Counted from the stretch's first letter, positions 10,042 to 32,000 are shown. The stretch: DNA of 32,000 nt from Thermoproteus tenax Kra 1 (GCF_000253055.1 NC_016070.1:810001-842000); one strand, 5' to 3'. Translations and numbers: made by a program. The notes: a model not told the origin generated them from the sequence alone.

Positions 10042-10138
10042 GGGCCCGTAGCTTAGCCAGGTTGGAGCGCCCAGGGGACAGAGCCCCCGCGTATGGCTGA
10101 TAACCGGGAGGCCCCGGGTTCAAATCCCGGCGGGCCCA
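10042..10138 (+). tRNA. tRNA-Ile (anticodon GAU) with a 22-nt intron at a non-canonical position (about 29/30, in the anticodon stem)
   Basis: Folded by hand. Acceptor GGGCCCG/CGGGCCC plus discriminator A; D arm GCTT-AGCCAGGTTG-GAGC; T arm CCGGG-TTCAAAT-CCCGG. The anticodon arm CCC[aggggacagagcccccgcgtat]GG-CTGATAA-CCGGG forms only after removing 10073-10094. CCA is not encoded. Confidence 0.85.
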
Positions 10139-10249
10139 CTATAGTCTTTCTAGTCGATAGCGGTTGTTCAACCAGAGACCGTAGATGTTTCCACAGCCGC
10201 CGCAGCTCCTGACGGTGCCTTCACCCGACGGCCATGACCTCCAAAGGCA

Positions 10250-17883: not shown

Positions 17884-18077
17884 AGGATCGGGCGCAAGGG
17901 AGCCAGATAGCGCGCCCTCCTCAATTGAGGCGGGTCCCTCGCTGTCAAGCGGACACGCGAGCCGCGCGATCGCCAGGGCCGACGACCACGAAGAGAAAAC
18001 TGCTGCTCCAGCGTAAAAGGAAAGGCATTTCGGGCCATGTAGAGAGGAGAATTAAAAATCTCGGCTTCAAGATTTTC

Positions 18078-19162
<1,085 letters not shown>

Positions 19163-19262: not shown

Positions 19263-19820
19263 GTGGAGCACATCTCCCTCCTCAGGCTTGTGGACGTCGT
19301 ACATGCACTCTTTGCCATGGAGCGCGAGCCCTACGCCTACGAGGCATTCATACGCGCGGCGAACAGCTGGGCCCTAAGGGCTTTGTCCAACGCGCCGGGG
19401 AGAGACTTGAGAGCCAAGGCGTGTAACGCGCTGGGACAGTCCTTGGGTAAGCTGATATCTCAGCTCAGGGCGCCCAGTGTGCTGAAGATCCCCTGCTCCA
19501 TCAGACAGGCGTTGAACATAGATCGAATAAAGTACACAGGATGCCCTAAGTTTCTGGCCGAGTGGGGGGCGGAATACGTCTATAGGCTCGTCTACGACGA
19601 GAGACTGAGGCGCTTAGCTATAAAGAGTGCCATGAGGAACCTATCGCTGTATGCGCACAAGGGACTAAGAGTGGAGGGAGCGCACGCCTCGGAGTGGCTC
19701 GCCGAGGACGCGGTCTCCGCCACGGGCAGTGTAGAGTGGAAGCCGTATCTAAAGAGGCTGTTGTCGGACATATTGCCCCTGTGCCAAGAAGTCGGAGCTC
19801 TCTTGGAGTTAGAGGGATGA
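19263..19820 (+). CDS. hypothetical protein (185 aa)
   Basis: GTG-started ORF immediately after an AT-rich island. Helical, Arg/Leu/Ala-rich. Its stop overlaps the next ATG in an ATGA arrangement. No motif recognised. Confidence 0.5.
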   Translation: MEHISLLRLVDVVHALFAMEREPYAYEAFIRAANSWALRALSNAPGRDLRAKACNALGQSLGKLISQLRAPSVLKIPCSIRQALNIDRIKYTGCPKFLAEWGAEYVYRLVYDERLRRLAIKSAMRNLSLYAHKGLRVEGAHASEWLAEDAVSATGSVEWKPYLKRLLSDILPLCQEVGALLELEG

Positions 19821-20530
19821 AGGTGAAGGTGGATATTTTGGCAGTGAGGGAGGCCGAGCTGTTGGTTGAGAGGTTGAGGTCTGCCGGAGCTGTGGTGGTC
19901 GACCCCTACCCTGAGGCGATCCCCACGCTGCTTCAAGACAAGCTGTTGTATCTCTCGTCGTCTATATACGGCAACCTCAGCCCCCTTCCGCTCTTTGAGT
20001 TCGGAAAGGGAGGCAGACGTTATGTTCTTTCGAACAGAGTTCACGCGGAGCTGGCCGAACTTCTCCCGGACCTAAAGGTGATCCACGTAGACGTTAGAGA
20101 GGAGGCGCTCTACCCCTTCGCGGCCTTAGCGTTGGTGTTAAACGATTTGGGCCTCACGCGGCTCAATAGGAAGTTCTTGAACGAGTACGTCTGTCCGGAG
20201 ATACAACAGCTGGATCAGGACGACGTTCCTCTGGCCCGAGAAATAAGGGAGGTGCTCTCGAAGTACTTCAAGCTCTGGCGTCGGGGAACATTGTGGAGGC
20301 TCTGCGGCCTTGGGCCCATCAACGGAGAGAAAAGCGATATAAATATAGATACCATCGCGGTCCGCATCGTCGAGAGCAATAGAAAGTTAAAGCCGAGCAT
20401 ATCGGTGGACGAATTAGAGATAGGCCTAAGAGGTGAGGACAAGGCGTTGTTGGCCAGAGTCGCGAGGGGGCTGAGGATACCAGGCTTTAGGGCAGAGCTG
20501 GAGGAGCTCCTCAGGCGTTATGATTTATAG
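19817..20530 (+). CDS. hypothetical protein (237 aa)
   Basis: Uses the inner ATG at 19817 of track ORF 19694..20530, which forms an ATGA overlap with the upstream stop. The protein starts MKVKVDILAVREAELL... No motif recognised. Confidence 0.55.
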   Translation: MKVKVDILAVREAELLVERLRSAGAVVVDPYPEAIPTLLQDKLLYLSSSIYGNLSPLPLFEFGKGGRRYVLSNRVHAELAELLPDLKVIHVDVREEALYPFAALALVLNDLGLTRLNRKFLNEYVCPEIQQLDQDDVPLAREIREVLSKYFKLWRRGTLWRLCGLGPINGEKSDINIDTIAVRIVESNRKLKPSISVDELEIGLRGEDKALLARVARGLRIPGFRAELEELLRRYDL

Positions 20531-20620: not shown

Positions 20621-20764
20621 CTTCATAGCAGAGCGGTGAAGAAGGCTAAGAGGCTTAAACCGGCAGCGGGCGCCTAGGGACAGATGGCGAATTCGGAGCC
20701 CCCCAGAGAGAGCCGGCGTTGCATAAGGGAAAGGAGTAGACGCCCACGGAAATACTACCCTTTT

Positions 20765-21469
20765 ATGGGCGTCAAATTTGCAATAGTCTACTCGGTCGAC
20801 GGCGGAGTGGGGAAGACGACTTTAGCCACCGCGATAGCTTTAGAGAAAGAGCGCGTGCTACTGATAGATGCCGACTGGGAGAAGGCAGACCTCTCGGCGT
20901 TGTTCGGAGCTCCGAGGAGACCCGGCTGGCTCTCCGGCTATTATGGCAAAGACGTATATTTGCATAAGGTAAAACCTAACATATATTTGTTACCAGGCTT
21001 TGATGCGGCGGCCTTATATCAACGGGGGGACATGACCGACGCCGAGCTTTTCGACGCGTTGTTTCAAGTCCTCTCGGCGTTGCCGGACGCAGTGGCCGAG
21101 GAGAGACTGCCAGTGGACACAATCGTCGTGGATACTCCCAAGGCCCCGCAGCTAACGTGGATTGAGAAGCTCCAGAGGAGACTTAAGGCACAAGCGTTCT
21201 TTATCGCCGATAGACGGCTCGTGGTCAGACTTGCAGACGTCAAAATGCAGATCTACGGCAAATACATGCGTTATGCCTCCCTCGTCGTAGCGAACATGTT
21301 GGAGAAAGAGGACGAAAAGATGCCGGGAATCAAGATGATGAACGCTTACCTTAACAGGGTTAAGATGCCCTCAGAGTACACCGCCGAGGCGGTCCACAAG
21401 AGCTTGCTCTCCAACAGGAGGAATAAGGAGGCGGTTCGTATGTTGGTGCGTTGGATTAAAGAGAGATGA
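20765..21469 (+). CDS. ParA/MinD/CpaE-like SIMIBI-class P-loop NTPase
   Basis: Uses the inner ATG (20765) of track ORF 20684..21469. MGVKFAIVYSVDGGVGKTTLATAIA (Walker A), LLIDAD (A'), TIVVDTP (Walker B). Its stop overlaps the next ATG (ATGA at 21466). Confidence 0.8.
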   Translation: MGVKFAIVYSVDGGVGKTTLATAIALEKERVLLIDADWEKADLSALFGAPRRPGWLSGYYGKDVYLHKVKPNIYLLPGFDAAALYQRGDMTDAELFDALFQVLSALPDAVAEERLPVDTIVVDTPKAPQLTWIEKLQRRLKAQAFFIADRRLVVRLADVKMQIYGKYMRYASLVVANMLEKEDEKMPGIKMMNAYLNRVKMPSEYTAEAVHKSLLSNRRNKEAVRMLVRWIKER

Positions 21470-23097
21470 GCTTGGCGGGGGCCCTATTGGCAGAGACGGA
21501 CAAGACCCTCATCGCCCGTTGCGTTGTAGTCAAGAGGGGAGTTATTGTGCACGGGAACTATGCTACAGATACCTGTATAACAGAGGACGGCCAGTACGTC
21601 ATCATAGACCCCGAAGTGCCTGAGCCCTTAAAGAGAGCCCTCGCATTGGCGACGCTCAGAGGAGCCATCCCTCCCGACTACCAGGAGTACGATAGAGCCA
21701 TGCGCGATGCCTTAGCGGTCCTGGCGGACGGCCGGAGCCTCCTCGCATGGAGAAAGAGGAGGGATATGCTCCGCCTCTACAGAGAGTACCGCCCATTGGT
21801 GCACTACATACTCGATCGATGGACAGGCCATGGGGAGCTGGGAGGCTACGGCGTATTAGAGCCCCTCTTGAGGGACGACCTCCTCACAGAGGTGGTTGTG
21901 CCTCAGCCGCTTGCGCCTCCAATGCGCTGGACAGAGCTACCGAAGAGCCCGCGGCAGTTGCTCGATAAAATATACGCAGAGGTCGTAGAATTGGGCAGGT
22001 TCAGAAGAGTGGTAGCCGTGAGGAACAACGCGAGGATGCCCACGAACGCTGTCGTGCCGGAGGCCTTCATGCCCCTTTTGGTGAAGAAGCTCATCCCGAG
22101 CCTCACTCTTGAGAGGCCGTTTCAGACCCGCGAGGATCCAGTCTACAGAATACGTATAGCGGCCGATCTGCTTGAGTATAATATTAATATCAGAAAGATG
22201 AGCGAGGTGCCGAGACCGTCTCCATCGCTCCTAAAGACCTATCTGGTGGCGCCCAAGCCTCCCCAAAACGGCGCCGCTATAGCGGCGGAGCTCAAGGGGC
22301 TGGAGCTCTTCGCCCTCGCCACTATAGCGGCGGAGGCAAAGTGGACTGTCGTCTTCTCTGGGGCCATGGGGACGGGCAAAACTACCCAACTCAACTTGCT
22401 CCTCTACTTCACTCCTCCTTGGATCCAAGTGGTCGTCATCGAGAGAGGCGCCAGGGAGGTGTGGGCCCCTCTGGAGGATCAGATATTGCACATATCGGTG
22501 CCCTCTGAGGCGAAGCTAGAGGAGGCCCTCGATCAAGCGCTCCGATATGGCACGATGGAGAGCATCATAGCGTTGGCGGAGGCGCGCACGGCGCGGGAGC
22601 TCAACACGCTCGTGTCGTACAAGCTCACAGGCCATGGGGGGCTGACAACGATTCACGCAGACACCATACACGATGCGCTTCTGAGGATTACTAGGTCAGG
22701 CGCGCCCTCAGAGGCTCTGGCCAATACTCTTATACTACAGCTGGGCGTCTCCAACGCCGTCAGATACTTAAAGGAGTGGAAGGCGTTGATCGCAAAGGGC
22801 GGCGAGGTGGCCGAGGCTTCGGGCCCAGAGGTTCTAGCCGCTTTGGAGGGATACACGAGGGCGGTCTACGCGACCTCAATACTGGAGGAGATCAAACTGA
22901 GGGTCGAGTTGATCCGCGCAGTAGCCGAAAAGGAGCTGGAGCCGCTCGAAGCTCGAGAGAGGATCGTGAGGCTATTCAGACGGAGGAGGACGTCAGTTAT
23001 ACAAGAGGCGTTCAAGTTCGGCTATTCATATTTACGTGAGGTTGAAAATCCAACACAACAAGGAGGAGCAAGCCGCCGGAGCGACAGACCTGTTTAA
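21466..23097 (+). CDS. type IV filament / secretion ATPase of the FlaI-TadA-VirB11 (GspE) superfamily
   Basis: 543 aa. Walker A FSGAMGTGKTT; Asp-box-like VVVIERGAREV; Walker-B-like ESIIALAEARTARE; His box TGHGGLTTIHADTIHDALLRI. A long N-terminal domain of about 290 aa resembles that of FlaI. Confidence 0.88.
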   Translation: MSLAGALLAETDKTLIARCVVVKRGVIVHGNYATDTCITEDGQYVIIDPEVPEPLKRALALATLRGAIPPDYQEYDRAMRDALAVLADGRSLLAWRKRRDMLRLYREYRPLVHYILDRWTGHGELGGYGVLEPLLRDDLLTEVVVPQPLAPPMRWTELPKSPRQLLDKIYAEVVELGRFRRVVAVRNNARMPTNAVVPEAFMPLLVKKLIPSLTLERPFQTREDPVYRIRIAADLLEYNINIRKMSEVPRPSPSLLKTYLVAPKPPQNGAAIAAELKGLELFALATIAAEAKWTVVFSGAMGTGKTTQLNLLLYFTPPWIQVVVIERGAREVWAPLEDQILHISVPSEAKLEEALDQALRYGTMESIIALAEARTARELNTLVSYKLTGHGGLTTIHADTIHDALLRITRSGAPSEALANTLILQLGVSNAVRYLKEWKALIAKGGEVAEASGPEVLAALEGYTRAVYATSILEEIKLRVELIRAVAEKELEPLEARERIVRLFRRRRTSVIQEAFKFGYSYLREVENPTQQGGASRRSDRPV

Positions 23098-23317
23098 CGA
23101 TACAAGCGAAGGCCTGGACGACATAGGGCACAAACAGAGCGCGGACAGCTGGGCCTTAGACTTCATAAAGTCGTTGGAGAGAGCCCCTAGGGAGGTCCTG
23201 GACAAACTGGGCCCGGAGGTGCTTGAGGCGGCCCTGCGCGAGGCGGCCAACTTGGACGGCGACGCCGGCGTAGTGGCTCGCCTCGCTATAACGTTGTTGA
23301 GGAGGTGCAGAGGATGA
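23036..23317 (+). CDS. small soluble acidic helical protein, unknown function
   Basis: Track ORF with a GTG start that overlaps the ATPase end by 62 nt; the true start may be later. No hydrophobic segment. Its stop overlaps the next ATG (ATGA at 23314). Confidence 0.35.
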   Translation: MRLKIQHNKEEQAAGATDLFNDTSEGLDDIGHKQSADSWALDFIKSLERAPREVLDKLGPEVLEAALREAANLDGDAGVVARLAITLLRRCRG

Positions 23318-23700
23318 GGGAGTGCGAAAAATTGATCGATGAGGGATATACGAAGGAGGCGGCAGAGGAGCTGTGCGAGACTGCTAAGGCTCTGGGCATA
23401 AAGCCCGCCAAACTGATAGCGGCGGCCAGAAGGCTGGAGAGGGAGGGAATCGCGTTGACGAGGGAGGACTGGCTTGTCGTTAAAGACGTCATGAGCAAGG
23501 GCTACTCGCTCGGCACAGTGGTGGACTACATAATAAAGAGACATAGATCGGGACTCTCGGCCAGACAGATAATAGAGGAGCTCCCTCTGGCGGCGAGCGC
23601 CTCCGCGAGGAGGGCGCACATACTGGGCAATCTGATAAAGTTGCTCCACGCGCCGGAGTGGTTCATTGCTGAGAACAAAGAGGAGGGTAAAGCGCGATGA
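23314..23700 (+). CDS. small soluble protein (128 aa), possibly with two helix-turn-helix-like repeats
   Basis: Uses the inner ATG at 23314 of track ORF 23305..23700. Two similar segments are present: GYTKEAAEELCETAKALGI and GYSLGTVVDYIIKRHRSGLSARQIIEEL. Its stop overlaps the next ATG (ATGA at 23697). Confidence 0.5.
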   Translation: MRECEKLIDEGYTKEAAEELCETAKALGIKPAKLIAAARRLEREGIALTREDWLVVKDVMSKGYSLGTVVDYIIKRHRSGLSARQIIEELPLAASASARRAHILGNLIKLLHAPEWFIAENKEEGKAR

Positions 23701-24917
23701 ACAGAGAGGAGTTCTACCTGCTTGCAGCGCCCGTCTTTGCCACGTATTTGGCCAGAGTATCCTCTCAAGAGGCGCTCCGCTATACGGCCTCGGCGTTGGA
23801 GGACGTGGATGAGCGCCACTCGAGAGAGCTCTTGTTGACAAGCCTCACGCCAAACCCTGGCCCCAAGCTCGTCGAGGACAAGCTGCCTGTCGTGAGACAA
23901 TTCGGCTTTGCTGTATCTCAAGAGGAGGCCGGAGTGCCCAAGCCGGTCCTCGTTTCCTCCTTCCTCTCAAACCTCAGGGCATACGCCGTGGGCAAACTTG
24001 AGGCGGCCATGCAACAGTTCACGGGGCTTTTCTCAGCTATGGCCAGCATGATGTTTGCTCCGTTGCTGCTCCTGTTTCTCTACGCCTACGGTCTCTTCGG
24101 GATCAACCCGACGGAGCTCTACTCATTGGGCGCCCTTATCTCTTTGTTGATCTCGCTCCTGATATATAGGGCGATGCCTAAGGACCTCTCGCCGAGAGTC
24201 TACGGCCCGTCCCTCCCTCTGGCCATCGTCGCGGGCGCCGCCGTGGGCGCGTTGGCCTACAACTACGCGCTGCCGCTAGCTCTGGCGCCTCTTGTCGCCG
24301 GCGCCGTCCTTACCGCGTGGCTGTTGACGACTAGGAGGATCCGTTGGTACTCGCTGGCTCTGGAGGTGCCGCCCATGCTCCGCGACTTCGCCTCGCGCCT
24401 ATCCCAAGGCGTGCCGCCAGATTTGGCTATGAGGGAGGTGGCCGCCACATACAAGAGCGCCTGGATGATAGCCTACTTCTATAGCATTCCATCTCTGCTC
24501 TACTCCGTGGCCAAAGCCATGTATATGGCGATCTCCTGGGCCGGCCCCAACCTCGAGGCAGTGGACTACCTCCAAGCGCTCCTCAACGAGCGCGAGAGGG
24601 CCATGAGGAGGGTGACATCGCTGGCCTTCATATTCATAGCCGTCTACCTCGGCGCCTCTCTCCTGTTGGCCTACTCCCTCGATATATCTACTACTGCGCT
24701 TCAGACTGTGCCGTCCACCGGGCAGGCCATCCTCTATCCTGTACCTCCTCAACAGGCGGAATATGTCGTAGCACAGCTCTTGTCTCTTATGACAGCAGGA
24801 TTTCTATTCTCAGTGCTGATGCCCAACCGCGGCGCATGGCTCTCTCTATCTGTTGGCGGAATCGCCGGAGTTGCCCTCTTCTATTCACTAGGCTATCTGT
24901 GGGCTATATGGGCGTGA
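23697..24917 (+). CDS. polytopic membrane protein, candidate FlaJ/TadC/GspF-like platform
   Basis: 406 aa. A soluble N-terminus of about 95 aa is followed by 7-8 hydrophobic segments, for example MFAPLLLLFLYAYGLFGI, LPLAIVAGAAVGALAY, LAFIFIAVYLGASLLLAY and SVGGIAGVALFYSLGYLWAIW. Its position right after the ATPase is typical for platform proteins. Confidence 0.65.
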   Translation: MNREEFYLLAAPVFATYLARVSSQEALRYTASALEDVDERHSRELLLTSLTPNPGPKLVEDKLPVVRQFGFAVSQEEAGVPKPVLVSSFLSNLRAYAVGKLEAAMQQFTGLFSAMASMMFAPLLLLFLYAYGLFGINPTELYSLGALISLLISLLIYRAMPKDLSPRVYGPSLPLAIVAGAAVGALAYNYALPLALAPLVAGAVLTAWLLTTRRIRWYSLALEVPPMLRDFASRLSQGVPPDLAMREVAATYKSAWMIAYFYSIPSLLYSVAKAMYMAISWAGPNLEAVDYLQALLNERERAMRRVTSLAFIFIAVYLGASLLLAYSLDISTTALQTVPSTGQAILYPVPPQQAEYVVAQLLSLMTAGFLFSVLMPNRGAWLSLSVGGIAGVALFYSLGYLWAIWA

Positions 24918-25423
24918 GGGGCCTTATATCCTTACGCTGGCTGATAGTCTCAGCTGCGACCATCGCTGCCGTCGCCGCGCTGGCGCTGGCGCAGTATCAC
25001 GCCATGAGCGAGGCGCGGTCCAACTACCCGCTCCTCGCGTTGGCGCAAGCTGTGAGAGACCTGACCTCCGTCAGCCTGCCGGACTACGTCAGAGTTTACA
25101 CTATAGAGGTGCACTACGTATATACAAGCGGTAGATGGGCTCTGGAGCCGGGCCCATCGCCGCCCAACTGCTCCAGCTGTATTCCTCCGCGCGGTTGGCT
25201 CTACTCTGTGTCGTTCGGCGCCAACGCGACGCCGCCCTTCGGGGCTACATACACCGTCGAGAACGCCACGCTCCTGTTGGGGGAGTCGCTCGTCGTTCCT
25301 CCCTATTGGGAGAACGCCACGCTCCTCTACCTCTATCCCACATGTCGAGGCGGCTTTAACTTTAAGTTCCAGAGGACAGAGGCCTTCGATGGAGTTGCGT
25401 TAATAATAATCCAGTGCAGTTGA
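24908..25423 (+). CDS. pilin-like protein with a class-III-type N-terminus
   Basis: Uses the inner ATG (24908) of track ORF 24836..25423 and overlaps the platform gene stop. MGVRG|LISLRWLIVSAATIAAVAALALA fits the [KR]-G-[hydrophobic] pattern followed by a hydrophobic helix. Sequons NCS, NAT, NAT, NAT. Confidence 0.55.
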   Translation: MGVRGLISLRWLIVSAATIAAVAALALAQYHAMSEARSNYPLLALAQAVRDLTSVSLPDYVRVYTIEVHYVYTSGRWALEPGPSPPNCSSCIPPRGWLYSVSFGANATPPFGATYTVENATLLLGESLVVPPYWENATLLYLYPTCRGGFNFKFQRTEAFDGVALIIIQCS

Positions 25424-25531
25424 CGGCTCGTCCTAGGCGGTTGCCACCATGCCTTTAAGCTCGTAGAACCATCCCCAACTTCTGGACTGGCTGTTAGCAC
25501 CAGAGAGGGTCGGAAGACTCAATATTTTTTC

Positions 25532-26026
25532 ATGCACTCAACACAAAATAAGGTCGGGAAGATCGTTGGAAGGAAGCTGAGGGGCCAATCAGGGGGTATC
25601 GACGCATTAATAATATTGGCTATCGTGATAGCGGTAGCCGCTATAATAGCGCTAGCCATTATGAGGATGGGCCAGTCGGCCGCCTCTGCAACGAGAGCGC
25701 AAGTGTTGGCCACCGTGGGAACCCACTATATGACAGTGGAGGTTCAAGTTCTGTCTGGAAAGCTCAACCAACTGTATGTACAGTACTGGCCTGAGAACCA
25801 GCCGAATAATATAGCGAACACTCCAGGTTCCTGTTATACTAATTCGACGGGCTCTACTCCAGTGAGCTCTACCGGCCTCTCCTTATACTCGGGCCAGTCG
25901 GCGGTGTGTTACTTCCCCTTGTCGACTACGCCGGGGGTTCAGTACAGCTACGTCATCATAGGATACGACGCAAACGGGAGAGTGATCCAGCTCTCGAGGG
26001 GCGTCTTCACGGCCGGCGCCAGCTAG
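25532..26026 (+). CDS. pilin-like protein with a class-III signal peptide; candidate major subunit
   Basis: The leader MHSTQNKVGKIVGRKLRG|QSGGIDALIILAIVIAVAAIIALAI is basic and is followed by a hydrophobic helix. It is the only gene in the cluster preceded by a >100-nt gap, and it is followed by a double T-tract. Confidence 0.65.
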   Translation: MHSTQNKVGKIVGRKLRGQSGGIDALIILAIVIAVAAIIALAIMRMGQSAASATRAQVLATVGTHYMTVEVQVLSGKLNQLYVQYWPENQPNNIANTPGSCYTNSTGSTPVSSTGLSLYSGQSAVCYFPLSTTPGVQYSYVIIGYDANGRVIQLSRGVFTAGAS

Positions 26027-26047
26027 GCGCGAACTTCGCGCAATCCC

Positions 26048-26062
26048 TCTTTTTTAATTTTT
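26048..26062 (+). terminator. double oligo-T tract after the candidate major pilin gene
   Basis: TCTTTTTTAATTTTT lies 22 nt after the 26026 stop. Confidence 0.35.
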
Positions 26063-26335
26063 GTGGACGTAGATGTATATGCTATGGTCGTGATCCTCGC
26101 TATAGCCTTGGTCATAATAGCGATGGTTCAGCCCTTCGGCTACAACGGCCCCTCCCTCTCGGCAATCTATAGGTATTGGCCCCAGTACTACAACTTCACT
26201 GTATCAGGCGACGTCAACAAGCTCTTCTTTGTCAAATATATGACCTGTTGGATCTACAACGGCAGTTGGACGCAGATATCCAACGCAGGCGGGCTCGGAC
26301 TGGCGACGCACGTGGCCAACTTGATCTGCCGCTAG
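26063..26335 (+). CDS. small N-terminally anchored protein (90 aa)
   Basis: GTG start. MDVDVYAMVVILAIALVIIAMV forms a hydrophobic helix but has no K/R-G motif. Sequons NFT and NGS. Confidence 0.45.
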   Translation: MDVDVYAMVVILAIALVIIAMVQPFGYNGPSLSAIYRYWPQYYNFTVSGDVNKLFFVKYMTCWIYNGSWTQISNAGGLGLATHVANLICR

Positions 26336-26348
26336 ATCCATTTTTGAT

Positions 26349-26687
26349 ATGAGGGGCCAAGGTGAACTTGTGACAATCGCCGCGATGCTTGCGGTTGGAG
26401 CGATGGCAATCCTCATAATTCAATCGGTAGCTCATGCGACCTCGTGGGAGCTCTGCAAGGCGGCGGCTCTAGCCCTTCAATACAACGGCTCGGCGTTCAG
26501 AGTGGAGTCTCTGGCATCGGCCCGGTGCTCTCCCTCAGGTTGCCAACTGAGTTGCGGGCTGTTCGTGCCTGCAGATAGAGTATTATATGTAGAGGGACGT
26601 CCGGCGCTGGGAGGCCTCCCTGGCGTCGTCATCGTGGGGTCAACACCCGACGGAAAACTGTATATAATTCCAGTTGTAGAAGGCTAA
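26349..26687 (+). CDS. pilin-like protein with a class-III-type N-terminus
   Basis: MRG|QGELVTIAAMLAVGAMAILII. Confidence 0.55.
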   Translation: MRGQGELVTIAAMLAVGAMAILIIQSVAHATSWELCKAAALALQYNGSAFRVESLASARCSPSGCQLSCGLFVPADRVLYVEGRPALGGLPGVVIVGSTPDGKLYIIPVVEG

Positions 26688-26734
26688 AGCGCTAACTCTA
26701 TAGGGCCACGAGCACGCACATATTTTTATTTTTC

Positions 26735-27154
26735 ATGAAGGGCCAACTCTCCGCTCCTGTGGCGGCCGCGATATTCGCTCTGGGGACCTCCATCTTAATA
26801 CTGGCGGCCATACTTAAGGTGGAGTCTGTGGCCTTGAGCCGGCACCTCGCCCCTCTGCCGCCAGCGGCCGAGGCAGGCGTCCGCTGGATCCACGTGCTGA
26901 ACTGCTCTGGCACTCTGATAGCTGTGGACGCAGGGACCTCCAACGCAAGTCAGGCGGAGGAGCTGGTGGGTTTGAGCTGTCGAGACCTAGCCTCATTCGA
27001 GCTGTGGCCCGGCGGTTACTCGTGCAACGGGACTGCAAGAATAGGGCCGGACCCCTTCACAGGCCTCTGGTGTCCTCCGCTCAAGATGCCTGACGGCAAG
27101 TGCTCCTCGGGGGTCCTTGTCTCAGAGGGGAGGTTTCTCTTGGTTCAGTGTTGA
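26735..27154 (+). CDS. pilin-like protein with a class-III-type N-terminus
   Basis: MKG|QLSAPVAAAIFALGTSILILAAIL. Several Cys residues and sequons (NCS, NAS, NGT). Confidence 0.6.
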   Translation: MKGQLSAPVAAAIFALGTSILILAAILKVESVALSRHLAPLPPAAEAGVRWIHVLNCSGTLIAVDAGTSNASQAEELVGLSCRDLASFELWPGGYSCNGTARIGPDPFTGLWCPPLKMPDGKCSSGVLVSEGRFLLVQC

Positions 27155-27155
27155 T

Positions 27156-28409
27156 ATGGACTTCGAGCTGCTGACTGCGGCTACCGCCGTGGTTGTCGGA
27201 GCGCTTCTTGCGGCCGCCTTCCTTATCCGTCCGTTGCCGCCTCCGGCGGCCTCCCTCTGCTCCGACTGCGAGTTCTCTATCAAGGGGCCTGTCTCATTCG
27301 CTGCGTACAACGGCTCCAGCTATCTGTTGGCGGGAGGAGGGCCGCTTCCACTCGCCCAGTACGCCTGGGCCTACTATGTTCACGGAGGCGTCGCGACGCC
27401 GTTGAGCCCGGGGCAGATGGTCGTCTGTCCCGACTACGCTTTTGTGAAAGTGGTAGACGGCGTGGCCTTCTTCTCCTGCAACGGCACAGCGGGGGCGAAT
27501 GTAGTCCAGAACGTATGGGCGCCGGCCGCAACGGCGCCGAGCCTCACCTCGACTTGTTCAACTACTGAGTGGAAAGAGAGTATATACAAAAGCGCAGTGC
27601 CGAAATCAGAGAGCACAAAGATCTGTATACCGCTGTTTGGCGGCGGTACACGGTGTTACTATCCTAGCGACACCGTATATGTCGGCATAGCCTCCGCGTA
27701 TAACAACTACAGCTATGCGCTGGCCCCATTTCCGTGGGTGAACGTCACTTACGTCGCTCCTTGGTACGACAACGGGACATATAAGGTCAGGACTATCGTA
27801 GTAAACCAGAGCATCGCCGTTGTAGTTAAAGTCGGCTACTACGTGGCCAACAGACTGAGGAATCCATATCGGTCAGCCGGCGCAGATGTGTATATGTCGG
27901 TCTTTACGCCGAGCCGGAGCAAGTTGACCTCCATGTGTTACTGGTATCTAGGCATGACCCCTCTAGGATGCGGCGACTGGTTGCCGGCTGGTGCGCTCCC
28001 ACAGCCGGCTATAGACCTCATAGAGAATTCCGTAGTCTCAAATGGAGGTGGATGGTGGTTTTACGACCTCTACGAATACGCGGTGTACGGCGGCATTAGT
28101 GGAACGAACAAGCTACTTCAAGCAACTCAAGTGTCCCACTCTACGTCGTGGTCCCTTCCCTCAGGTACTGCCACGTTGGCGTATAACGCGACTACGGACG
28201 TAATATCCGCGGCGTTCCCCAGATATGCTGTAACGTACGTGGGGTCACAGTACGGCATATCGCCGCCCTCCAATGGCACATATTACGCCGTGGTGGGGGT
28301 ATCTAGCAGCGGCGTGCCCGCGTCAATCTCGTACTACAACGTGACAGTAATAGGGCGAAGTACAATATGTGTGGAGGCCGTCCCAGACTCGCTCATACCG
28401 GTGCCATGA
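27156..28409 (+). CDS. large N-terminally anchored, Cys- and sequon-rich extracellular protein (417 aa)
   Basis: Uses the ATG at 27156, 1 nt after the upstream stop. The track's TTG start at 27117 would overlap the upstream gene by 38 nt. MDFELLTAATAVVVGALLAAAFL, about nine N-x-S/T sequons by eye, and many Cys/Tyr/Trp residues. Confidence 0.6.
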   Translation: MDFELLTAATAVVVGALLAAAFLIRPLPPPAASLCSDCEFSIKGPVSFAAYNGSSYLLAGGGPLPLAQYAWAYYVHGGVATPLSPGQMVVCPDYAFVKVVDGVAFFSCNGTAGANVVQNVWAPAATAPSLTSTCSTTEWKESIYKSAVPKSESTKICIPLFGGGTRCYYPSDTVYVGIASAYNNYSYALAPFPWVNVTYVAPWYDNGTYKVRTIVVNQSIAVVVKVGYYVANRLRNPYRSAGADVYMSVFTPSRSKLTSMCYWYLGMTPLGCGDWLPAGALPQPAIDLIENSVVSNGGGWWFYDLYEYAVYGGISGTNKLLQATQVSHSTSWSLPSGTATLAYNATTDVISAAFPRYAVTYVGSQYGISPPSNGTYYAVVGVSSSGVPASISYYNVTVIGRSTICVEAVPDSLIPVP

Positions 28410-28978
28410 AGGGCCAGTGGTCGATCGCGTTCGCGTTGGTCGCTTTGGCGATAGTTGCCTGGACTATAACGGCGGTCTACCTCGCGTCCCCCAAGTACAT
28501 GCCGCTTGATACATCGGAGGAGCTCTATCTGCTTAAGCTCAGCGCCGTTCACGCCATTCAGCAGATCTATTGTACAACGTACAGTGCGTCAGGCCTATCG
28601 GTCTACTGCGACGGCCGCCCGTTTTTCTTTGGGCCCAACGAGTCTGTCATCATCTTCTACGACGGGAGGCCCGTGGCGGCGCGGCTCTCGGCGGCAAACG
28701 GCGCCGTCAACTACACGCTCTTTGTTGCGCTTCAAGCATCTGTCCCGGCCGTTAGCCAGACCGGCCAAGGCGTAAGAGCTGCCTACTTTTCAGTATACTC
28801 GACCCTCGACTTCCTGCCAGAGCTACAGGTGAACGCCACTCACGTCGAGTACGTCTATCTTCGGCCGAACGGCTGGTACTACCAACCCAGCCTGACCTAT
28901 CTGTTGGTTGTTGAGAATGGAACTGGCGTCCGCATCGTCGACTACCCCGTCGTGTTGAACTTGAGCATAGTGGGATAA
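28406..28978 (+). CDS. pilin-like protein with a class-III-type N-terminus
   Basis: Uses the inner ATG 28406 of track ORF 28367..28978, giving an ATGA overlap with the upstream stop. MKG|QWSIAFALVALAIVAWTI. Sequons NES, NYT, NAT, NGT, NLS. Confidence 0.6.
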   Translation: MKGQWSIAFALVALAIVAWTITAVYLASPKYMPLDTSEELYLLKLSAVHAIQQIYCTTYSASGLSVYCDGRPFFFGPNESVIIFYDGRPVAARLSAANGAVNYTLFVALQASVPAVSQTGQGVRAAYFSVYSTLDFLPELQVNATHVEYVYLRPNGWYYQPSLTYLLVVENGTGVRIVDYPVVLNLSIVG

Positions 28979-28985
28979 TTTTTTC

Positions 28986-31900
28986 ATGAGAAGGAACCCC
29001 CTGATCGTTGCAACTTTGTTCACAGCGGCGCTGATAGCTGCAGTACTGGCTGCTACATTCGTCAGAGCGTTCCAGTCAACCGCTACTTCCTCTAGCTCTA
29101 CCAGGTGCGTCTGGAACGTCATTTACACAACCTCGAACACGCCGGTGGTCTCGATTGCAGTGCCCGTACACGTCAGCTTGACGTTCTTGGGGATACCAAA
29201 GAGTGGCTCCTACCTGGTGGCAGACACTAACCCCATCACTGTTGGCGCAAGCCCAATGCCCACCGACGGCAAATACTTGATCAATATAACGTGGACGTTC
29301 TATACATATACTTACAACTACACTGTATATCGGAACAACTGCACTCTGCAGACGAACGCGGTGTTGGCCATAACGTCCGCCGGAGTCTCGTCGAACGGTT
29401 CGTACTCTACGGGCTGGCAACCGGTGCCGGGCACCACCGCCTCGCTCTCGTACACAATAGTGGGCTACGGAAGCCCATCGATAAGCCAGCTACAGAGCGA
29501 GGGGGCCTTTCCATACGGCATCAACCAGACCGTGGGCGCCCCTCCGACGGACCAGATCGTTGTAGCTACGGCCGAGAAAAACACAGAGCTCAGCGGCTTC
29601 AGACCTGGATCGCGGAACGCGGGGAAGATGGGCGTGAGCGTCACAGTGCCGGACGTCCAGCTAGTAGTGGGCGACGGCGCCCAGGGGCTCGCAGAGAACC
29701 CCTTCGGGACCCAGTACAGCGCGCCTGGGGGTACGCCGTATTGGAGCTACAGCGGCGCGGACGGCAGACTCGTTGCCCAGTACAACTTGCGGAATCAATT
29801 CCCCTCCAGTATATCGCTGGACGTCTGGTACATCCCGCCGGAGTGGAGCTACACCAAGCTGGAGTCGAGCACCGCGCCGGACTATTCGGCGGAAGCATTT
29901 ACACAATCGCCCGGCGGCTCTTGTGATATGGACGTCTATGGTCTCGCTACTTATGGTCTAATTGTATACAGCTGCTACGCGATGATTGGGATAGGCAAGA
30001 ATGCTAGTGCGACCGTCGAGATTCCTGTAAACTATACTTTTCTCGACACTCTTCTCAATAATGCAACGCTCTTCAACGACTACGTGATCAACACGTTCTT
30101 CTCGACAGTAGTGGGCAAAATTGCTCAAAGTGTTGCAAAATACTTTGCAAATTCAGGTATAAACAACCCGCCGTATAGGGTTATAGGAGGTCCGTTCTCA
30201 GCAGGCAACCTTCATGGTTTTAGTTATAACCAGTTCGGCGAAATTAGCGGATTTCTCTTTGACTATTCGTACTACTATATATCCAGCTCTTTTAATTATT
30301 GGGGACTTCCATTTACAAATATATGGGCCTTTATCCCCTATGGCGCGCTAGTCCGCGGCGACATCATCACAGTGCAGTACCCCGTGGGGGGCATCGTCGA
30401 CATGATGTCTGGAGCTGACAAGGCTGGGTCACTGGTGTCCATCGGAGCCTGCGGCTTCGAGGTGCCCACCGGCTACGCGAGCGGGCTGAACTATTCGGCG
30501 TGGAACGGGACGAGTCTAGAGCTGGGCGGCAACAAGACCGGCGAGGAGCTAGTGCTGTACCCGATGGCCCAGTTTGCCCCCCAGTACGGCCCCAACTGGT
30601 TCGGCGATCTTGCCCTCTATTCGTGGCTCTATCCTCAGGCCGATTCGCCCAAAGAATCGGCGTCAGGACAGTTTGTCTCAGTCTTAAACACGACGTGGAC
30701 CGCTCAGTTCATAATCGGCAAGACGGGCGAAGCGCCGATAATAACGTCGCAGTCTGTAGGGAAAGTGGCCTCCTGGAACCAAGCTGATGCAATACCGCAC
30801 ACCGAGTATGCCGACATACTCTACCACTACGCCCCAACGTGCGTCCCGCCGCAGGCGAACAACGGAGGCGGCGGAGGCAGCGGCATAGTGGTGGGCCCGC
30901 CTCCTACACCGCCGCCCCCGCCCGGAGGCACGCCCACTAAAGACGGCATAATTCTATGGGAGTTGGTCCCCCTCGTGGCCTGCAAATCGCTCTTCTGCGA
31001 GCCGGCCAACGCCTGGTGGAATGGGCACTACACCGGCGTCTACGCCCTCCCGAACATAGCGTACGGCATCGCCGTAGAGTGGACGGGCAGCTCTCCGACA
31101 AACGTCACTATATACGTCGACTCGCCCTTGGCCAGGTTCATCAACGGCTCTTGGATCCACGGGAGCCCGCTGACGATGAAGGTGTTCGGGAGGGCGGTAG
31201 AGGCGTTCAATCTGACTCTGGGCACGTTCGAGCTCGACCCCGGCGTCTGGTACCTCGTGTTGCCCGGCCGCGCGGTCCCGCTCGGGAACGGGCCGGATCC
31301 GCCGCAGACCTCGGGCTGGTCGGCCGTGCCGCCCGCGTGGTTCATTTCGCCGCGCTGGAGCTCCAACGGGACGCGGGATGTGCACTTCCTGTGGTTCAAA
31401 GTGGGGGGCGCTCTGTATGGGGACACCTACACGGTCGTTGTGCCGGACGTGCTCTACAGAGTCGACAACAACTTCACAAAGATCGCAACGCCCGAGAGCG
31501 AGGTCAGACTGCTCCTCTATCTGCCTACCGGGGGATGGGCCACCTATCCGCCCAACTACGTCGGCTATACGCCCAACGACACGCGGCTCGGCCTATTGCC
31601 CTTCAGGTCCTACACCGGCGGGTACGAGTACTGGACCGGCTTTGAATACGACGACACGACCGCCTTCGCGGGCTCGTTGGCTGCGGCGGGGAGGCTGTTC
31701 AATCTGACCCTCGGGGGCCAACCGGTGCTCAACGCCACAGTGGAGCAGATAGACGTGAGGGCCGCCGTCGAGGTGGGGCCCTCGGGCGTCTCAGTGGAGT
31801 CGAGCGACCCAGCCGACACCATCGGATACTACATCTACCTCCGCCGCAACGGGACGTGGGTTATGCGGGCCTTCTGCCCCGGCTCACAGATCCAGCTTCC

Positions 31901-32000
31901 GCCGAACCTCACCATATGGCCGTGGGACCCCGCGCTGGTGGTGCCGGCAGTATATCACGTCGGGAGGATCCGCGAGAACGGCACCATACTCTATCCAGTG
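28986..32000 (+). CDS. giant secreted/surface protein (>1005 aa), truncated by the right window edge
   Basis: Absent from the ORF track because it has no stop in the window. I translated frame 28986 codon by codon to 32000 and found no stop. N-terminus MRRNPLIVATLFTAALIAAVLAATFVRA is signal- or anchor-like. About two dozen N-x-S/T sequons by eye. A Gly/Pro hinge NNGGGGGSGIVVGPPPTPPPPPGGTPT spans 30858-30938. All other listed ORFs in this span are in other frames or antisense. Confidence 0.75.
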   Translation, partial: MRRNPLIVATLFTAALIAAVLAATFVRAFQSTATSSSSTRCVWNVIYTTSNTPVVSIAVPVHVSLTFLGIPKSGSYLVADTNPITVGASPMPTDGKYLINITWTFYTYTYNYTVYRNNCTLQTNAVLAITSAGVSSNGSYSTGWQPVPGTTASLSYTIVGYGSPSISQLQSEGAFPYGINQTVGAPPTDQIVVATAEKNTELSGFRPGSRNAGKMGVSVTVPDVQLVVGDGAQGLAENPFGTQYSAPGGTPYWSYSGADGRLVAQYNLRNQFPSSISLDVWYIPPEWSYTKLESSTAPDYSAEAFTQSPGGSCDMDVYGLATYGLIVYSCYAMIGIGKNASATVEIPVNYTFLDTLLNNATLFNDYVINTFFSTVVGKIAQSVAKYFANSGINNPPYRVIGGPFSAGNLHGFSYNQFGEISGFLFDYSYYYISSSFNYWGLPFTNIWAFIPYGALVRGDIITVQYPVGGIVDMMSGADKAGSLVSIGACGFEVPTGYASGLNYSAWNGTSLELGGNKTGEELVLYPMAQFAPQYGPNWFGDLALYSWLYPQADSPKESASGQFVSVLNTTWTAQFIIGKTGEAPIITSQSVGKVASWNQADAIPHTEYADILYHYAPTCVPPQANNGGGGGSGIVVGPPPTPPPPPGGTPTKDGIILWELVPLVACKSLFCEPANAWWNGHYTGVYALPNIAYGIAVEWTGSSPTNVTIYVDSPLARFINGSWIHGSPLTMKVFGRAVEAFNLTLGTFELDPGVWYLVLPGRAVPLGNGPDPPQTSGWSAVPPAWFISPRWSSNGTRDVHFLWFKVGGALYGDTYTVVVPDVLYRVDNNFTKIATPESEVRLLLYLPTGGWATYPPNYVGYTPNDTRLGLLPFRSYTGGYEYWTGFEYDDTTAFAGSLAAAGRLFNLTLGGQPVLNATVEQIDVRAAVEVGPSGVSVESSDPADTIGYYIYLRRNGTWVMRAFCPGSQIQLPPNLTIWPWDPALVVPAVYHVGRIRENGTILYPV

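Follow-up and report, generated by a model that had tools for sequence, protein, structure and literature searches.

PilY1, which serves here as the working analogy, docks on the minor-pilin priming complex of its pilus and acts as a tip adhesin. PilY1 and PilC, from the type IVa pili of Pseudomonas and Neisseria, are non-pilin proteins of ~1000 amino acids (aa) that carry a Sec signal and are encoded inside a minor-pilin operon. Their C-terminal domain is better conserved and their N-terminal part more variable. Among archaea, the clade 1 pili of Methanococci and Thermococci have DUF2341 proteins, which are large, secreted, encoded in type IV pilus loci and proposed to be tip adhesins by analogy with PilY1. 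Thermoproteales have an unusually large number and variety of type IV pilus systems. Makarova et al. (2016) placed one such system, found in the Pyrobaculum-Thermoproteus group, in subclade 4G, and described its arCOG05616 protein as a secreted component, "possibly an adhesin or a minor pilin"; an adhesin role for the large 4G protein is also proposed in a 2026 preprint. Here we analyzed a stretch of 32,000 nucleotides (nt) of the Thermoproteus tenax Kra 1 chromosome (GCF_000253055.1 NC_016070.1:810001-842000; hereafter the window), at the end of which lies the arCOG05616 gene, TTX_0973. Its product is a large protein of predicted extracellular character, tied to the pilus genes by its position and to its Pyrobaculum counterparts by its C-terminal domain, which we tentatively interpret as an accessory adhesin of the 4G filament.

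TTX_0973 resembles PilY1 and PilC in its non-pilin character and size, a predicted Sec signal, the place of the gene among minor pilins and the uneven conservation of the two halves. It differs in having no match to the PilC/PilY1 beta-propeller family or to any other Pfam family, which places it outside the PilY1 family, and archaea also lack the outer membrane and secretin of the bacterial systems. The phrase "remotely homologous to PilY" in the 2026 preprint refers to the adhesin of subsystems 4A and 4B, not to that of 4G. The resemblance to the DUF2341 proteins is likewise one of size, secretion and gene context: neither TTX_0973 nor its relatives match DUF2341, and the DUF2341 proteins belong to another pilus clade.

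The gene is real and was already catalogued. Adding 810,000 to a window coordinate gives the genome coordinate, and the genes of the window match the published table one for one (TTX_0958 at 828512-829162, for example, corresponds to 18512-19162, and TTX_0969 at 836349-836687 to 26349-26687). The T. tenax genome paper, which reports a Kra1 chromosome of 1,841,542 bp with 55.1% G+C, lists TTX_0973 in its supplement as arCOG05616, "Predicted component of Type II/IV secretion system". Its gene table gives Pcal_0321 of Pyrobaculum calidifontis as the best match (E 0.001) and places the convergent upp gene, TTX_0974, after TTX_0973. An initial annotation of the window, made from the DNA alone, had called the frame unannotated, which is incorrect for the public genome. 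The frame is indeed missing from the list of open reading frames (ORFs) that accompanied the window, because it runs off the edge and the ORF lister drops such frames. The frame itself is as that annotation described it. Translation gives 1005 codons without a stop from the ATG at 28986 to the window edge, an event to which we assign an estimated chance of ~1e-16 (~3.6% stop codons are expected at this base composition), and the ATG follows the TAA of the upstream gene by 7 nt (TTTTTTC). The orthologues of that upstream gene begin in a pilin-like manner, with M[KR]GQWS and a hydrophobic stretch. A protein search supplied the complete product (P0001), which is 1040 aa long with 35 residues encoded beyond the window; the gene spans genome positions 838986-842108 and ends 108 nt past the window. 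Gene and family have been known since the genome annotation of 2011, and the adhesin idea is in print in the pilus census of 2016 and in the 2026 preprint. New here are a domain map that separates a variable N-terminal half from a conserved C-terminal region of ~350-390 aa shared with Pyrobaculum, a set of traits specific to T. tenax (a possible anchor, a linker, an insertion and reshuffled cysteines), a gradient of conservation across the cluster, and the very small size of the recognizable family.

TTX_0973 is the last gene of a subclade 4G type IV pilus cluster (Table 1). The genome paper predicts three type IV pilus operons in T. tenax, TTX_0962-0973 among them, and TTX_0973 sits together with the arCOG05609 ATPase, the arCOG05611 TadC protein, the arCOG05608 MinD/FleN protein and the arCOG05612-05619 pilins. 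The genes from TTX_0966 to TTX_0972 (24908-28978) encode seven secreted or pilin-like proteins. Six small proteins of the cluster have an N-terminal hydrophobic segment, which in four of them is preceded by a basic residue and Gly (M[KR]G or R-G). In several the N-terminus reads M(K/R)GQ ahead of a hydrophobic stretch, a start that the orthologues share. The FlaFind table of the genome paper includes TTX_0966, TTX_0967 and TTX_0970 from this cluster. The last four genes are separated by 1 nt, a 4-nt overlap (using the start of TTX_0972 proposed below) and 7 nt, and such small gaps fit co-transcription of the four.

To place the protein among its relatives, syntenic loci were collected through orthologues of the ATPase. 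In every complete Thermoproteus locus fetched, an orthologue of 957-966 aa comes last, directly after the arCOG05615 gene and before the convergent upp gene, and is 28-37% identical to TTX_0973 over its full length (E 1e-56 to 5e-79). Scans of species genomes and metagenomes with an alignment restricted to Thermoproteus added eight loci, three from genomes named Thermoproteus and five metagenomic ones of the common Thermoproteus sequence type; the metagenomes yielded no closer T. tenax-like variant. A word-indexed search of 5.8 billion proteins, run with the single sequence and with a seven-sequence profile, returned only the query, its candidate lists having probably been swamped by low-complexity words. 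Exhaustive phmmer comparison with 1.84 billion representatives found three relatives, all matching mainly aa 641-1004. By these searches the recognizable family is very small and, at the level of single sequences, limited to Thermoproteus. A viral origin was considered and rejected, there being no relative on 2.9 million viral contigs.

The Pyrobaculum loci carry a protein of 968-991 aa after the corresponding minor-pilin genes. Pairwise BLASTP connects it to TTX_0973 through two short collinear matches (E 6e-6 and 0.002), and profile comparison with hhalign aligns TTX_0973 aa 649-997 with aa 630-951 of Pyrobaculum arCOG05616 over 290 columns (96.3% probability, E 1.5e-9). On the strength of this alignment, the C-terminal domain is homologous across Thermoproteus and Pyrobaculum. 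The N-terminal 600 aa of the Pyrobaculum proteins, in contrast, have no similarity to the N-terminal half of TTX_0973 that BLASTP or hhalign can detect. Pcal_0321 (979 aa) resembles TTX_0973 in size class, in its export signal, in its position after the arCOG05615 gene and in the C-terminal domain of ~350 aa, and the Pyrobaculum proteins also have multiple cysteines with one at or near the C-terminus; that of TTX_0973 lies 5 residues from the end. Both genera retain the block of arCOG05614, 07478-like, 05615 and 05616 genes, although arCOG05617-05619 have moved: they follow the large gene in Pyrobaculum and precede it in Thermoproteus. The initial annotation had described the large gene as encoded in line with pilins, and this holds beyond T. 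tenax: the cluster is tight, the gene order is kept in Thermoproteus, and the block of minor pilins and large gene recurs in Pyrobaculum.

Conservation forms a gradient across the cluster. Between T. tenax and the other Thermoproteus, the MinD protein and the ATPase are ~71% identical, TadC 59-63%, the PilA-like pilin 61-67%, the other small secreted proteins 35-62%, and the large protein 28-37%, the lowest value of all. By this comparison TTX_0973 is the fastest-evolving member of the cluster. Its composition is of an extracellular type. It has 23 N-X-S/T sequons against 8.3 ± 2.6 expected (2000 shuffles, maximum 18), an aromatic content (F+W+Y) of 13.5%, where cytosolic proteins encoded in the window have 6.6-9.8%, and a charged content (D+E+K+R) of 10.9%, where those cytosolic proteins have 23-33%. 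The low identity, the sequon density and the low charge fit an outermost, exposed position for the protein. These counts, together with a single hydrophobic span near the N-terminus, agree with the initial annotation, which had noted about two dozen sequons, an abundance of aromatic residues, an N-terminal signal or anchor and no recognized domain. On the last point, searches of Pfam, NCBIfam and PDB sequences with TTX_0973 gave no match; for all seven family members there was no Pfam match at E up to 1, and single sequences and two profiles found no PDB sequence match. Comparison of segments against one another with hhalign detected no internal repeats.

The N-terminus differs between T. tenax and its relatives. 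The orthologues have short Sec-type signal peptides of ~15-16 hydrophobic residues with an A-x-A end before a conserved Cys (for example, MRWVVLTLAIAFLAWAAVQA ahead of PNC and MRLLLWLILPALAQA ahead of AV) and clearly have no further membrane segment. The hydrophobic run of T. tenax is 21 residues long, is followed by the S/T-rich linker, and may be an uncleaved membrane anchor; the genome paper describes an N-terminal transmembrane (TM) segment with an ST linker as the layout of T. tenax binding proteins and as a probable N-terminal anchor. The T. tenax copy alone also has an insertion of ~50 residues in the N-terminal half, a Gly/Pro-rich linker, 23 sequons where the others have 15-17, and a different set of non-core cysteines.

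The large protein can be divided into a variable N-terminal half and a conserved C-terminal domain. The N-terminal half is gap-rich and, in windows of 50 aa, 15-49% identical to the Thermoproteus orthologues. The C-terminal domain is 37% identical to them and contains the motifs LW.LVPL..C.SL.C, AWWNG, GYYIYL.RNGTWV, PWDP and NWWSLP. Between them lies the linker GGGGGSGIVVGPPPTPPPPPGG, which the initial annotation had recognized as a hinge splitting the protein. The boundary is real and, by alignment, conserved, but its Gly/Pro composition is peculiar to T. tenax, since the orthologues have a short non-repetitive stretch at the same place and a third lineage (P0082) an S/T/P-rich one; the linker as we delimit it falls inside the hinge first marked at 30858-30938. 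We also considered a phase-variation tract here and rejected it. The linker DNA has no homopolymer longer than 5 nt, so there is no obvious slippage tract, and its only repeat is a 9-nt unit in 2.3 copies. Only 3 of the 23 sequons (N720, N742 and N955) are positionally conserved. Six cysteines are common to all Thermoproteus copies and four others are exchanged in T. tenax, which lacks four that are conserved in the C-terminal domain (near aa 776, 845, 865 and 887 of the alignment) and has four that the others lack, in the N-terminal half (C313, C330, C489 and C619). With four lost, four gained and the total kept at 10, the pattern suggests that two disulfides have been relocated in the T. tenax protein.

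Structure prediction, which the initial annotation had recommended, was carried out with AlphaFold2. The single sequence gave a predicted local distance difference test score (pLDDT) of 31.3 and a four-sequence alignment one of 33.1, so that neither model is usable; at this low confidence, the C-terminal domain is predicted to be all-beta. A Foldseek search of the PDB with the low-confidence model found no match at E <=0.001 (best E 0.014, TM-score <=0.28). The weak, non-significant matches were mostly to tandem FnIII/Ig-like domains. They agree with the Ig-rich fold that the 2026 preprint reports for the arCOG05616-type protein but are no evidence for that fold.

The reading we favor, at slightly less than an even chance, is that TTX_0973 is a Sec-exported, N-glycosylated and disulfide-stabilized non-pilin adhesin of the 4G filament, docked on minor pilins in the manner of PilY1. 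Export through Sec would deliver a glycosylated, disulfide-stabilized accessory protein to the cell surface. The conserved, beta-rich C-terminal domain (aa 649-1040) would dock on the minor pilins whose genes immediately precede TTX_0973 (arCOG05614, arCOG07478 and arCOG05615). As the initiators of assembly, these pilins would come to lie at the pilus tip. The N-terminal 600 residues, which diverge fast and are carried on the flexible Gly/Pro linker, would then contact a substrate or another cell. The initial annotation had proposed a tip adhesin, sheath or cargo of the filament. Its link to the pilus genes stands, through the conserved cluster and the published census; the role itself can be stated only as a matter of likelihood.

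Several observations weigh against an adhesin at the tip. We found in the literature no experiment on any 4G component and no sighting of a 4G filament, and the pilus imaged in P. arsenaticum has been attributed to subsystem 4E. Searches of Pfam, NCBIfam and the PDB found no adhesin, lectin, vWA or PilY1 domain in any family member, and the Ig-rich fold of the preprint is not confirmed by our AlphaFold2 models (pLDDT 31 and 33). A membrane anchor in the T. tenax protein, if that is what its N-terminus forms, would suit the tip of a long filament poorly. The contrast between variable N-terminal and conserved C-terminal parts is only moderate within Thermoproteus. In one Thermoproteus lineage, finally, the 4G ATPase gene is split (see below), and the large protein (963 aa) is nevertheless intact, as is the rest of the pilus cluster. 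This calls for caution about a strict dependence on the ATPase and would accord with a role independent of it.

A more specific and unlikely version of the adhesin reading assigns a function to each half. The C-terminal domain of arCOG05616 would be a module peculiar to archaea and hitherto undescribed, by which a Sec-exported non-pilin is attached to a type IV pilus, convergent with PilY1, and the hypervariable, glycan-covered N-terminal half would be a species-specific recognition surface for cell-cell contact or a receptor for viruses. A recognition surface would explain why the protein evolves fastest in its cluster. The virus-receptor idea presupposes that Thermoproteus viruses attach to pili; the reviews examined on these viruses do not state that they use pili. 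In a further variant, the T. tenax form would be tethered to the membrane by its long N-terminal helix and S/T linker. If arCOG05616 is the adhesive tip, it would offer a handle on what these hyperthermophiles attach to and on the means by which a 100-kDa glycoprotein crosses a 37-nm surface layer (S-layer) on a filament. There would be a modest further gain if its C-terminal domain proved to be a new pilus-docking module.

The N-terminal helix of the T. tenax protein also underlies a rather improbable alternative in which TTX_0973 is no adhesin and instead belongs to the pilus base, as a membrane-near collar or a port through the S-layer canopy of ~37 nm. The 21-residue segment and S/T linker have the anchor layout described in the genome paper, the S-layer of Thermoproteaceae is exceptionally thick, and according to a suggestion in the 2026 preprint, accessory proteins that are Ig-rich and S-layer-like may prepare the cell wall for passage of the filament. 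A further point in favor is that the arCOG05616 form of 4G is reported for the Pyrobaculum-Thermoproteus group. Against this alternative, homologues of PySLP, the S-layer protein, also occur in Vulcanisaeta and Caldivirga, and descriptions of the 4G loci there list pilins that are mostly unrelated, along with additional membrane proteins. All other orthologues, moreover, have short, cleavable-looking signal peptides and no second hydrophobic segment, and would be untethered, and a structural part obliged to match a conserved S-layer and pilus would be expected to evolve slowly, not faster than everything else in the cluster.

That TTX_0973 is a cargo or substrate, a glycoprotein such as a binding protein or an enzyme that the cluster, as a pseudopilus or a device like the bindosome, would place or release at the cell surface, we regard as very unlikely. 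The gene is last in its operon and encodes a non-pilin, the bindosome of Sulfolobales is an archaeal type IV machinery that serves surface proteins, and NCBIfam gives the ATPase and TTX_0972 weak, sub-threshold similarity to the bindosome proteins BasE and BasB. Bindosome substrates, however, have class III signal peptides and accompanying ABC transporter genes, whereas the signal of TTX_0973 appears to be of the Sec type and there is no transporter gene in the cluster; Pfam and NCBIfam also detect no enzymatic or solute-binding domain. In a monoderm archaeon, in addition, a Sec substrate can be released without any type II-like machine.

There is still less to be said for a minor pilin built into the filament through its N-terminal helix, although the wording of Makarova et al. 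admits one and the T. tenax N-terminus is a long hydrophobic helix. A pilin role is made unlikely by the signal, which is not of class III. Neither TTX_0973 nor any orthologue has the [KR]-[GA] prepilin peptidase motif ahead of the hydrophobic stretch (the T. tenax leader is MRRN-P, without G or A at -1), the orthologue signals end in an A-x-A-like manner, and TTX_0973 is not in the FlaFind table of T. tenax.

The initial annotation had also raised the possibility of an ordinary S-layer protein unrelated to the pilus genes. PySLP and its T. tenax homologue TTX_1887 do resemble TTX_0973 in being secreted, sequon-rich, Cys-containing and beta-rich, with fast-evolving exposed parts, and occur in the same organisms; TTX_0973 is also large and poor in charge. 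We exclude this identity, since the S-layer protein of Thermoproteaceae is known from cryoEM and mass spectrometry (~2,667 aa, with Ig-like domains) and is in T. tenax TTX_1887 (2,663 aa), a lattice-forming protein 2.5 times larger, with a C-terminal TM anchor that TTX_0973 lacks, encoded separately near AMMECR1, thioredoxin-like, adenylate cyclase and DNA ligase genes and not in a pilus cluster kept in two genera.

Table 1. Genes of the T. tenax subclade 4G pilus cluster and regions of TTX_0973, in window coordinates.
Feature	Position	Strand	Basis
TTX_0962, arCOG05608, FleN/FlhG/MinD-family ATPase	20684..21469	+	Pfam, NCBIfam, annotation
TTX_0963, arCOG05609, subclade 4G secretion/assembly ATPase	21472..23097	+	Pfam T2SSE, E 3.6e-11
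TTX_0964, arCOG05610, small cytoplasmic helical component	23314..23700	+	annotation, census
TTX_0965, arCOG05611, diverged TadC/FlaJ-like platform protein	23697..24917	+	annotation, census
TTX_0966, arCOG05617, pilin-like or membrane component	24908..25423	+	FlaFind-positive
TTX_0967, arCOG05612, PilA-family pilin, predicted major pilin	25532..26026	+	weak Pfam Pilin_N match; FlaFind-positive
TTX_0968, arCOG05618, small protein, N-terminal hydrophobic segment	26063..26335	+	annotation
TTX_0969, arCOG05619, pilin-like, 112 aa	26349..26687	+	annotation
TTX_0970, arCOG05614, pilin-like (MKGQLSAPVAAAIFALG...)	26735..27154	+	FlaFind-positive
TTX_0971, arCOG07478, secreted, 417 aa, N-terminal hydrophobic segment, 9 sequons, 10 Cys	27156..28409	+	
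TTX_0972, arCOG05615, pilin-like, directly upstream of TTX_0973 (from probable start)	28406..28978	+	orthologue N-termini, annotation
TTX_0973, arCOG05616, codons 1-1005 of 1040	28986..32000	+	open frame, full protein, genome table
TTX_0973 aa 1-30, N-terminal export signal or anchor (MRRNP, 21-residue hydrophobic run L6-V26, RAFQ)	28986..29075	+	hydropathy
TTX_0973 aa 31-39, S/T-rich linker STATSSSST, ahead of first conserved Cys, C41	29076..29105	+	only in T. tenax copy
TTX_0973 aa 41-626, variable N-terminal half, 12 of 23 sequons, T. tenax-specific insertion at ~aa 288-338	29106..30863	+	
TTX_0973 aa 627-648, Gly/Pro-rich linker at domain boundary	30864..30929	+	composition; orthologue alignment
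TTX_0973 aa 649-1040, conserved C-terminal domain (window cuts at aa 1005)	30930..32000	+	orthologue identity, hhalign

Some neighboring genes of the cluster also deserve comment. TTX_0972 is annotated from 28367, which gives a 43-nt overlap with TTX_0971. This start is probably wrong and 28406 (MKGQWSIAFALVALAIVAW) the true one, judging from the orthologues, all of which start at the position equivalent to 28406 with M[KR]GQWS[LI]A[FY]ALVA. The 28406 start forms an ATGA overlap with the stop of TTX_0971 and exposes a class III-like signal peptide, and a misplaced annotated start would account for the gene having escaped FlaFind. TTX_0971 (417 aa) can be matched with a 110-aa ORF found at other Thermoproteus loci (L001:17026-17361 is one) over only ~115 residues, and the loci with the 110-aa ORF have a separate ORF of 362-366 aa just ahead of it. 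Two genes may have been fused or rearranged to give TTX_0971. Immediately upstream of the MinD-like gene, the hypothetical genes TTX_0960 and TTX_0961 (19263-20530) have counterparts of 42-55% identity at the same position in other Thermoproteus and no BLAST match in either of the two Pyrobaculum loci; possibly they encode cytoplasmic components of the cluster that only Thermoproteus has.

The split ATPase gene is found in three Thermoproteus metagenome-assembled genomes (MAGs), GCA_038877655, GCA_038881835 and GCA_038727015 (L003:1983-11119; L004 and L005). The first ~156 residues, 63% identical to TTX_0963, are separated from the remaining 372 by an insertion of ~7.4 kb that carries TnpB/Cas12f-like, AAA-type and HD/Cas3_HD-like genes. 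Among the orthologues of the large protein (L001:17930-20803 and L010:9983-12856), a MAG gene call starts at L001:18410 and yields 797 aa. A frame that includes a proper signal peptide opens at 17930, right where the upstream gene stops, and encodes 957 aa, so the public 797-aa entry (P0080) is probably truncated at its N-terminus. Elsewhere in the window, ARAGORN identifies an intron-containing tRNA at 10042-10139, with the anticodon left unresolved by the program (tRNA-???, 'caga' at position 38), in keeping with the published count of 13 tRNAs with introns in T. tenax.

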